Source of the DNA: Halorussus marinus
Lineage (GTDB): Archaea; Halobacteriota; Halobacteria; Halobacteriales; Haladaptataceae
DNA: 64,000 nt
Assembly (NCBI RefSeq): GCF_004765795.1
Contig: NZ_SBIV01000004.1
Span: forward strand, 1 to 64,000
Direction of reading: 5' to 3'
Shown here: positions 9,569-29,430 of the stretch, piece after piece
How positions within the stretch are numbered: position 1 is the stretch's first letter
Layout of the letters: each line of letters starts with the position of its first letter
The notes under the pieces: generated by a model
Database searches by the model: none
Told to the model about the DNA's origin: nothing
The model's input: only the letters and a program-made list of their open reading frames with translations
Position numbers and translations under genes: made by a program

Positions 9569-10075
9569 ATGTACGACCGGATACTCGTACCCACCGACGG
9601 TTCGACCGACACCGAACGCGCGGTCGAACACGCCGCCGATCTGGCGGCCGCCCACGACGCGGAGCTACACGCGGTGTACGTCGTCAACGCCGCGACGTTC
9701 GCGGGGCTACCGATGGAGACCTCCTGGGAGGGGATCGACGACGTGCTCCGCGGAGAGGGCGAGTCCGCGCTCGACCGGGTCGAGACCATCGCCGACGAGC
9801 GCGACGTCCCGGTCTCGGCCCGACTGCTCGAGGGGTCGCCCAGCAGACGGATCGTGGAGTACGCCGAGGACGAGGGGTGTGATCTGGTCGTGATGGGGAC
9901 CCACGGCCGGGGCGGCATCGACCGCCTGCTCCTGGGAAGCGTCGCCGAGGGGGTCGTCCGGGCGTGCTCGGTCCCAGTGTTGACGGTTCAGGTCGGCGGC
10001 GCCGACGGCGAGCAGGCGGCCTCGGAGACCGAGACCGAGTCGTCGCCCGAAGCGGGCAACGCCACCGTCGAGTGA
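9569..10075 (+). CDS. universal stress protein
   Basis: MYDRILVPTDGS and DLVVMGTHGRGG...LLGSVAE. Confidence 0.95.
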   Translation: MYDRILVPTDGSTDTERAVEHAADLAAAHDAELHAVYVVNAATFAGLPMETSWEGIDDVLRGEGESALDRVETIADERDVPVSARLLEGSPSRRIVEYAEDEGCDLVVMGTHGRGGIDRLLLGSVAEGVVRACSVPVLTVQVGGADGEQAASETETESSPEAGNATVE

Positions 10076-25248: not shown

Positions 25249-25422
25249 CTACTCGCCAGCCTTGCTCTGCCACTCGTAGTCGCGGCGCTTGCTCGACTTG
25301 CCGAAGCCGCACGACGAGCACTCTTTCTTCTTGACGTGATACGACTTTTCGCCACAGCGACGACACTTGACGTGGGTCGTCGTGTTCTTCTTCCCCTGGC
25401 TCGGGGTGCCTGCACCAGTCAT
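25249..25422 (-). CDS. rpl37e: 50S ribosomal protein L37e (absent from ORF track)
   Basis: [45 protein letters not shown] overlap with lsm. Confidence 0.96.
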
Positions 25423-25610
25423 GGGTTAATCGACACGAGGTTGTCGCCGCGTATAATCGTTGTGTCTTCCTCCGCGGTGTCTTCCAGCACGAGATTCATG
25501 TGCTGGTCGTAGCCGGTCAGCGTCCCCACGAACTCCTCGCCGCCTTTCAGGCGCACCGTGACCTCCTCGTCGAGGGAGGCCTCCAGTACGTCGAGCGGTC
25601 GTCCACTCAT
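25419..25610 (-). CDS. lsm: Sm/Lsm RNA-binding protein
   Basis: MSGRPLDVL...[10 protein letters not shown]...IIRGDN. Confidence 0.95.
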
Positions 25611-28627: not shown

Positions 28628-28774
28628 ATGAGAGACGAAGACGAGATCCGCGAGCAGTACGAGTTCCTGCAAGAACACCTCGACGACGAGGACATGCGCC
28701 ACGAGGGAGTCCGAGAAATGTTCACGTACTACAAGCGGGCGCTCGGCTGGGTGCTCGAAGAAGAGCACATTTAG
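28628..28774 (+). CDS. 48-aa acidic small protein
   Basis: MRDEDEIREQYEFL...YYKRALGWVLEEEHI* with typical codon usage. Confidence 0.8.
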   Translation: MRDEDEIREQYEFLQEHLDDEDMRHEGVREMFTYYKRALGWVLEEEHI

Positions 28775-28881
28775 GGAACCGAAATCTCCGCCGGAGATGC
28801 CTCGAAAACGTAGGTCAGCCGCGGAACCGGTACGGTTGACCGTGGTCGGTAGTCTTAAGTGGTTACGGGGTTTTGTTGCAA

Positions 28882-28980
28882 GTGACGCTTCGCTTGGAGG
28901 GCCGAAGCGTCAGCGGGGACCAATTCAGGGCGGCAAGCGGTTCGCGGGGCTTTTTCACCCCCGCGCTATCCGCTTTCCTT
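28882..28980 (+). ncRNA. candidate small stable ncRNA
   Basis: tRNA-like promoter CTTAAGT(28854)...AGTG(28881); perfect 10-bp 5' stem; second GC stem followed by a T-rich tract. Confidence 0.55.
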
Positions 28981-29142
28981 TCCGTATTCGATTTTCGAGA
29001 GCGGACGCGCCGTCGTGATCGCCGCCGACCGTCGTCCGAAGGCTTCGATCGTCAGTCGTAACTGAGTCGGCCGATGCGCCGGGCCGCGATCGCGGGGGCC
29101 GTCACCTACTTTTCGCTCGCAGACCTACCTCGGACGTTACCG

Positions 29143-29430
29143 ATGCACGACCTGACGGGATTCCAACGAGACCTGCTGTACGTCATCGCCGGGCGCGACG
29201 AACCGCACGGACTCGCGATCAAAGACGAACTCGAATCGTACTACGAGAAAGAAATTCACCACGGCCGGCTCTACCCCAACCTCGACACGCTGGTCGACAA
29301 AGGGCTGGTCGAGAAGGGCCAGCGCGACCGTCGCACCAACTACTACACGCTCACCCGTCGGGGAACGCGGGAGATCGAGGCCCGCCGCGAGTGGGAAGCC
29401 CAGTACGTCGAGCCGAACGTCGAAGCCTGA
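29143..29430 (+). CDS. PadR-family transcriptional regulator
   Basis: MHDLTGFQRDLLY..PHGLAIK..HGRLYPNLD.LV.KG..DRRTN.Y. Confidence 0.92.
   Translation: MHDLTGFQRDLLYVIAGRDEPHGLAIKDELESYYEKEIHHGRLYPNLDTLVDKGLVEKGQRDRRTNYYTLTRRGTREIEARREWEAQYVEPNVEA

Follow-up and report, generated by a model that had tools for sequence, protein, structure and literature searches.

A gene for a non-coding RNA of about 100 nt lies on the forward strand of the Halorussus marinus genome and is preserved nearly unchanged across almost all haloarchaea. The gene was found in a stretch of 64,000 nucleotides, the window, to which all positions refer unless another contig is named. It has its own promoter, encodes a two-hairpin fold and is nearly universal in its class. 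The RNA is the orthologue of HVO_2868s (Hts30) of Haloferax volcanii, where it is a primary transcript. Its role is tentatively read as that of a stationary-phase decoy whose 5' module would serve as the binding site of a conserved protein or machine, an explanation to which we give a little under half of the weight.

The RNA locus is intergenic, located between a 48-aa open reading frame (28628-28774) and a gene for a PadR-family regulator (29143-29430), downstream of a gene for a Dna2-like helicase-nuclease. A preliminary description of the window proposed an independently transcribed ncRNA of about 100 nt at this site, and the proposal is backed by the promoter, by conservation and covariation, and by the published primary starts of the H. 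volcanii orthologue. The elements on which it was built are all in place, namely CTTAAGT at 28854, AGTG at 28881, a stem at 28883-28912, a linker, an inner stem at 28943-28965 and a U-rich tail. The promoter geometry reported as common to the RNA and two tRNA genes exceeds chance, as its relaxed form occurs four times in the genome, three of them at the sites originally described, and the exact 7-mer followed by 20 nt and AGTG occurs only twice in 3.76 Mb, at the RNA locus and at tRNA-Val. The AGTG word itself is not conserved, with A as its first letter in 34% of 158 distinct upstream regions. Conservation upstream of the core is confined to the TATA box at -30 (28854-28860, forward strand) and a BRE-like element with the consensus CGNTA, at -37 to -33 from the start (28847-28851, forward strand). 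Relative to the core, a TATA-like word occupies -30 in 160 of 170 copies and -31 in 8 and is missing from 2, and the assignment is supported by TATA data from H. volcanii. The BRE-like element is defined by position-specific conservation (C 94%, G 92% and A 96% in the 158 regions). Since these two words are fixed while the bases between them vary freely, the pattern is the signature of a promoter.

Transcription is inferred to start at 28884 on the forward strand, within one base, by homology to the dRNA-seq starts of HVO_2868s and HVO_2213s, and not at 28882 as first suggested. Babski et al. 2016 (PMC4983044) list primary starts for both RNAs in Table S1 (coverage 387 and 611, code e111), each 28 nt upstream of the start published in 2012 and with the TATA box at -28. 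The printed upstream sequence ends on the first G of the first hairpin, P1; this G is counted 27 nt from the 2012 start whereas 28 are listed, hence the tolerance of one base. Assembled RNA-seq contigs from other organisms, covering 4 of 24 listed runs, contain the core, although such contigs are uninformative on start, strand and level; the contigs of three runs start at 28893-28895, inside the P1 loop.

The 5' module consists of P1 and the linker that follows it. P1 (28884-28911, forward strand) is a hairpin of near-invariant sequence in which pairing is kept and rare compensatory changes occur. The stem first reported exists, but it has 9 bp (28884-28892 with 28903-28911) and not 10, because the outermost U-A pair fails to form in 15 of 88 sequences and sits 5' of the published start. 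Across 88 distinct copies, 99.7% of P1 cells are paired, with a compensatory change in two of the nine pairs (U-A to C-G in 3 copies, C-G to U-A in 1) and a G-U change in two (A-U to G-U in 6, G-C to G-U in 1); these pair-keeping changes stem from a few lineages of extra copies, and further cases lie beyond the 88. The 10-nt loop (28893-28902) begins with 2-4 variable pyrimidines and continues with 8 invariant nucleotides, identical in 88 of 88 copies. RNAalifold closes it with a pyrimidine-G pair (62 U-G, 26 C-G) and a U-G pair, so that the predicted loop is probably reduced to a GGAG tetraloop. The G-rich single-stranded linker (28912-28921, forward strand) carries a second GGA, and each of its columns is identical in 87-88 of the 88 copies.

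The second hairpin, P2 (28927-28983, forward strand), is long and irregular, with a pyrimidine-rich 3' end and a free sequence held together by covariation. The second stem of the preliminary description (28943-28965) is real, yet it forms only the inner part of this hairpin. All 16 P2 pairs show changes on both sides, and the apical loop (28950-28958) is U-rich, U making up 50% or more of it in 124 of 141 distinct sequences. P2 is likely a terminator or stability module. For the structure as a whole, 92.2% of cells pair in the 88 copies compared with 74.0% in shuffles, and both partners change in 18 of 26 pairs, a result reached by 0 of 500 shuffles (slid controls, 37-48%); the alignment was fitted to the covariance model and is hence biased toward the structure under test. 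Single-sequence folding is modest (z-score -2.4, with 3 of 200 shuffles equally good), and the case for the RNA therefore rests on comparison. The core is complete in 171 of 173 fetched loci, with only 8 variants, a set picked by matching and including duplicates that overstates invariance; the genome count by the 27-nt core is fairer.

By that count, the 27-nt core (up to 3 mismatches) is present in 377 of 401 Halobacteriales genomes and in 291 of the 295 near-complete ones, with 0 for the reversed control; these genomes are kin, and their counts are not independent events. Other searches agree. The RNA was found by blastn in 57 of 61 related genomes, an exact 22-mer occurs at no fewer than 117 loci, all titled Halobacteria or Halobacteriota, and a covariance model built from 66 copies has a match in 149 of 151 genomes of the class. 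The BLASTN comparison across Halobacteria that had been proposed as a check thus shows conservation in nearly all the related genomes searched. Among the 150 matches listed, out of 465 in total, 140 are exact, 7 are true variants and 3 are chance matches in which the hairpin is absent. Most genomes have one copy, and most of family f6 has two; the two-copy genomes named among the 22-mer matches are Halegenticoccus, Halobellus and Haloplanus. A few genomes carry extra copies on plasmids or low-GC islands. A weak second match in the H. marinus genome itself (E 0.01) was rejected, as it lacks a TATA box and its P1 is broken.

The 24 genomes of the 401 that lack the 27-nt core comprise families f11 (0 of 9) and f12 (0 of 2), genus g156 (0 of 8) and five genomes that are 61-77% complete. 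The g156 genomes without the RNA are 0.8-1.2 Mb in size and 58-78% complete. Blastn, pattern and model searches found no copy in f11 and f12; the best candidate there was rejected because it runs antisense within a long protein-coding gene, and in two f11 genomes the stretch that follows the 48-aa gene holds no copy. These three groups are useful for the profiling of partners. Beyond the order, a blastn search of 254 further genomes of the phylum yielded only 6 short matches (E 0.003-0.04), and none of the three that were fetched scored; the covariance model covered the class only. No match was found in 50,697 phage records, and the 62 IMG/VR stretches with a 16-nt pattern contain nothing that the model scores as a full copy (best E 0.01).

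Both flanking genes are neighbours and not part of the RNA. The 48-aa conserved hypothetical gene (28628-28774, forward strand), orthologue of HVO_2868, adjoins the RNA in 101 of 158 loci. Its acidic product belongs to no Pfam family, is encoded, with 73-96% identity and mostly just upstream of the RNA, by 154 of 201 Halobacteriales genomes, and is modeled as a plain helical hairpin (pLDDT 71). It was rejected as an obligate partner, being absent from several RNA-bearing genomes that are 98-99% complete and present in 8 of 9 f11 genomes without the RNA. The PadR-family gene (29143-29430, forward strand; Pfam PF03551, E 3.5e-17) adjoins the RNA in 110 of 158 loci. In the H. marinus genome it has four close paralogues with 77-93% identity (contigs C5, C7 and C15), and across 106 loci the region upstream of it shows conservation of an AT-rich signal between -41 and -31. 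An lsm gene was placed about 3 kb away in the preliminary description and is indeed present at 3.3 kb (25422-25601, minus strand, Pfam LSM). The link suggested with it is not supported, since the intervening Dna2 gene is beside only 3 of the 158 loci with at least 1 kb of flank. The lsm gene is followed by rpl37e and purF (25252-25601, minus strand) and is divergent from the 1007-aa Dna2-like nuclease-helicase, an ordinary haloarchaeal order.

Six divergent copies of the RNA are found on low-GC islands or plasmids. The island copies are divergently placed, 105-140 nt from a gene for a 325-aa hypothetical protein that occurs in 47 of 101 genomes. This protein was rejected as a partner, as the covariance model detects no RNA beside 25 of 25 other loci; across all 30 fetched upstream regions of the gene, the RNA is present only in the two already known. 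The 25 loci without RNA indicate that the pairing is probably one capture event. The single-sequence model of the 325-aa protein is unusable (pLDDT 41). Elsewhere in the H. marinus assembly, contigs C7 (29732-35885) and C11 (67665-74869) each carry an array of some 14-16 tRNA genes, the two being similar in order; both contigs have a low GC content (58% compared with 68%), and the arrays are likely carried by plasmids or proviruses. On contig C24, a short stretch in the 23S-5S rRNA spacer (after 3121) resembles a tRNA T-arm and 3' end and is uncalled by ARAGORN.

Although the RNA had been taken as undescribed, it was catalogued in 2012 in H. volcanii as Hts30 (HVO_2868s). The published sequence of HVO_2868s is identical to the window at 30 of its 32 bases (28910-28941), and both the promoter spacing and the gene order (48-aa gene, RNA, PadR-numbered gene) are kept; HVO_2868 is given as 48 aa and directly upstream of HVO_2868s in Babski et al. 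2016 (PMC4983044). The P2 sequence of Hts30 differs from that of the H. marinus RNA. In the portions available of Heyer et al. 2012 (PMC3495736), Hts30 is a table entry given no structure, family, knockout or function, and the supplement provides 32-nt sequences for HVO_2213s and HVO_2868s with the same core bases at the start. By sequence, HVO_2213s (Hts10) is a paralogue of Hts30 with an identical core and represents a second, lineage-limited copy in the context TrkA-Lrp-DUF5813-RNA-MCP. This second copy has a DUF5813 gene on one side and an MCP transducer on the other, with Lrp and TrkA genes nearby, and it is identified as Hts10 because the context matches the described place of Hts10 (HVO_2213 / Htr36). 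An earlier candidate for the published match, H225.2R (HVO_1727s2), was dropped once the flanks fitted Hts10. Jaschinski et al. 2014 (PMC3956466) used an hts10 deletion primer that includes the 5' arm of P1, part of the invariant core, and reported hts10 homologues in 18 other haloarchaeal genomes by BLAST; the text and supplement, as far as available, make no mention of HVO_2868s as a second copy.

Hts10 is about 110 nt long on a published Northern blot. Its reads in exponential and stationary phase number 414 and 1,959 under standard conditions, 418 and 246 at high temperature, and 207 and 330 at low salt; those of Hts30 are none (below threshold) and 479, 136 and none, and 101 and 450, respectively (Heyer et al. 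2012, PMC3495736). In both copies, reads begin at one shared base within the 3' arm of P1 (PMC3495736). Together with the contig starts in the loop, this shared start is a hint of defined processing and may also reflect library bias. An RNA antisense to Htr36 has been published at 10,000 TPM or more, and this abundant RNA would be Hts10. Single deletion of hts10 is reported to be mild, with 87% yield on acetate, 89% at 4 M NaCl and 113% at low salt. In the mutant, about 30 genomic regions rise, most strongly HVO_0255-0271, by up to 55-fold. The HVO_0255-0271 cluster includes an integrase and phage-type repressors, so the rise may be provirus induction, whether direct or incidental. The mild phenotype could be due to the identical core left at HVO_2868s, and the single knockout is thus uninformative.

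The conserved features of the RNA are most simply explained by a binding site on a stable carrier, given a fixed helix sequence, loop and single-stranded flank joined to a hairpin of free sequence. P1 tolerates only pair-keeping changes, and the loop and linker are fixed even in the divergent island copies. Joint constraint on unpaired bases and on the sequence of a helix suits recognition of a three-dimensional surface better than a seed. Copies that each have a TATA box are present in gene contexts unrelated to one another, which argues that the RNA acts in trans. Under the explanation we favor, the RNA would be a stand-alone, abundant housekeeping RNA, enriched in stationary phase, that serves as a protein-binding decoy or scaffold. 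The 38-nt 5' module, which comprises the P1 helix, the GGAG-capped loop and a G-rich 3' strand with the second GGA, would be read by both shape and sequence, and one conserved protein or machine would be titrated by it when growth slows. For P2, a helix with a U-rich loop and tail may suffice, serving termination, stability or the loading of an Sm protein. The published stationary-phase rise in reads under standard conditions is counted in favor of a decoy, and the fall of Hts10 reads from 418 to 246 in stationary phase under high temperature counts against it. The tests for partners found no CsrA, and neither neighbour gene tracks the RNA. Invariance alone fits protein binding, ligand binding and pairing to an invariant RNA alike. 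A bolder version, which we regard as unlikely, holds that this is a class-wide housekeeping RNA with a new type of function, under a constraint equal to that of rRNA cores. It would dock on a central machine, either the 30S subunit (16S tail and neck) or the transcription apparatus, and in stationary phase switch that machine off or keep it in store. If true, archaea would have in this RNA their missing equivalent of 6S RNA or of ribosome hibernation factors, and its two copies in the model organism would explain how a class-wide RNA was overlooked.

The remaining explanations differ in what the invariant bases would contact. In a trans-acting, base-pairing sRNA, the G-rich loop and linker, two unpaired stretches on offer, would be seeds for C-rich mRNA sites, for example in the provirus-like cluster, and would lower mRNA levels. 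The regions that rise on deletion of hts10 fit this idea, and the linker is used in the IntaRNA predictions of its authors (PMC3956466), but those predictions come from a 32-nt fragment without P1, with no control apparent in the available text, and the identical paralogue was still present in the mutant. Moreover, holding 38 nt invariant would need mRNA sites fixed across the class, and the exact complement of the 10-nt linker can be found at just 6 further positions of this genome, none of them evidently a gene start; we consider the explanation improbable. Invariant rRNA targets would account for the invariance, and the RNA could be a ribosome-binding decoy. Its loop GGAGG would then pair with the anti-Shine-Dalgarno tail of 16S rRNA and its linker with positions 1326-1334 of the same rRNA, which we take to be in the neck region, either to park the 30S subunit in stationary phase, as the rise in reads would suggest, or to chaperone folding. 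For the 9-nt linker, 16S offers a perfect Watson-Crick/G-U site at 1326 and another at 398, and any such site is found for only 3.4% of 2,000 permuted linkers and in 7% of 2,000 shuffled 16S sequences. This evidence is post hoc and near chance, however: 3 of 40 shuffled linkers pair equally well with 16S, the loop performs worse than 36 of 40 shuffles, and 23S has no linker site. The preliminary description saw the loop GGAGG as a Shine-Dalgarno-like element, a role left without support by a pairing of only 5 bp to the 16S tail that leaves 3 invariant loop bases unexplained. The three ribosome-associated RNAs in the accessible part of Wyss 2018 are different RNAs, and ribosome binding of this kind appears quite improbable.

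Aptamer and catalytic cores typically show near-total invariance. As the 5' module does so too, it could be a compact tertiary fold, a loop-linker pseudoknot or a K+-dependent G-quartet core, that acts as a metabolite or ion aptamer or as a ribozyme. The loop GG is able to pair with the linker CC, and among 9 additional or aligned copies changed at the CC, 7 are C to U, which keeps a G-U pair, and 2 are C to A. The reads of both H. volcanii copies from one base in the P1 3' arm, and the contig starts at 28893-28895, would also fit. Against a pseudoknot, there is no compensatory change, C to U is the commonest mutation anyway, and a third pair is broken in 6 of 87 copies; RNAfold predicts no G-quadruplex, and no Rfam riboswitch or ribozyme scores. 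Small ribozymes leave a 5'-OH, and this argues against a ribozyme, as the published library is described as ligating 5'-phosphate ends. A tertiary fold of this type is as improbable as ribosome binding. A cis element, either a leader or riboswitch acting on PadR or a palindromic DNA site for a regulator, is largely refuted and retains very little probability. The PadR gene is next in 110 of 158 loci and one RNA-seq contig covers both, which is not proof of a single transcript; yet the median distance to PadR is about 540 nt, PadR carries an upstream signal of its own, the genes on either side of the Hts10 copy are on the opposite strand, that copy is reported as a discrete band of about 110 nt, and the G-U-keeping changes in P1 point to pairing in RNA and not in DNA. 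A padR leader is excluded in practice, and so is a coding role. An open frame of 45 codons does begin at GTG 28882, but the published start falls on the third base of that GTG, so the frame is not contained in the transcript, in line with the non-coding view of the preliminary description. The triplet is not ATG, GTG or TTG in 15 of 171 copies, a one-base loop insertion occurs in 51 of 171, and there is neither synonymous variation nor a Pfam match, which makes a small peptide exceedingly improbable.

The transcript is already catalogued, and the RNA itself is not new. As far as the literature searches reach, its near-universal presence, its covarying structure, the lineages without it and the paralogy of Hts10 and Hts30 are new. 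A search of full texts by sequence words returned no relevant paper, the available supplements of Gelsinger 2020 and Paya 2018 contain no match to the RNA, and a search for a description of the structured motif found none. HVO_2868s, HVO_2868 and HVO_2869 appear in no main text searched, the combination of Haloferax and hts10 only in the two papers cited, and the accessible text of a 2026 genomic-language-model atlas preprint has no passage containing 'halo'. Haloarchaeal sRNAs are reported to be mostly species-specific, with 22 of 27 confined to H. volcanii. Near letter-for-letter retention over 38 nt in an RNA without an Rfam family contrasts with this picture and points to a basic, unrecognised process; the depth of conservation is the surprise for specialists. 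A second copy may have masked the importance of the RNA in knockout tests. The role is directly testable because the transcript is catalogued in a genetic model, and a double deletion of HVO_2868s and HVO_2213s with a pull-down is unpublished as far as the searches reach.

Comparison with known classes agrees with the preliminary view that the RNA belongs to no known Rfam family: a check of the whole window against Rfam 15 returned tRNA only, and at E up to 10 the region 28700-29150 gave one chance match, IMES-5 (E 7.3), on the opposite strand. Riboswitch and T-box leaders always stand 5' of identical or functionally related genes, and they differ from this RNA in that its paralogues precede unrelated or opposite-strand genes; a resemblance of the P2 base to the T-box motif was dropped because that part varies among copies. 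The archaeal C/D and H/ACA guide RNAs, such as sR-h45 and sR-tMet, are small, conserved and independently transcribed, and the present RNA is likewise a small, conserved, two-hairpin haloarchaeal RNA with its own transcription. Inspection by eye identified no C/D box, ACA box, K-turn or K-loop among the conserved columns. Guide RNAs use complementarity of 10-12 nt, or a bipartite one, to rRNA or tRNA; here the best single-stretch complementarities are matches of 9-10 nt at chance level. Pairing to tRNA was rejected, as no tRNA end fits the loop and the best linker duplexes, with two tRNA-Leu and scored without a control, fall in paired stems. 6S RNA and Ms1 RNA are abundant, clade-wide RNAs of stationary phase, and 6S RNA, which binds RNA polymerase, is a long duplex with a central bubble that mimics an open promoter. 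This RNA is similarly the product of an abundant, clade-wide, stationary-phase RNA gene; unlike 6S RNA, it has two separate hairpins with no long duplex or central bubble, about half the length and no Rfam match. The sponge RNAs CsrB, RsmY and RsmZ display GGA repeats in hairpin loops, are encoded by stand-alone genes and rise in stationary phase. The haloarchaeal RNA shares with them a GGA in a hairpin loop, a second single-stranded GGA, a stand-alone gene and the rise in stationary phase, and differs in having only two GGA sites and a fixed sequence in place of repeats, in a genome without CsrA (PF02599 in 0 of 1 genome, this one; control found in 3 of 14). As a decoy, it would follow the logic of CsrB and RsmZ or of 6S RNA while belonging to neither family.
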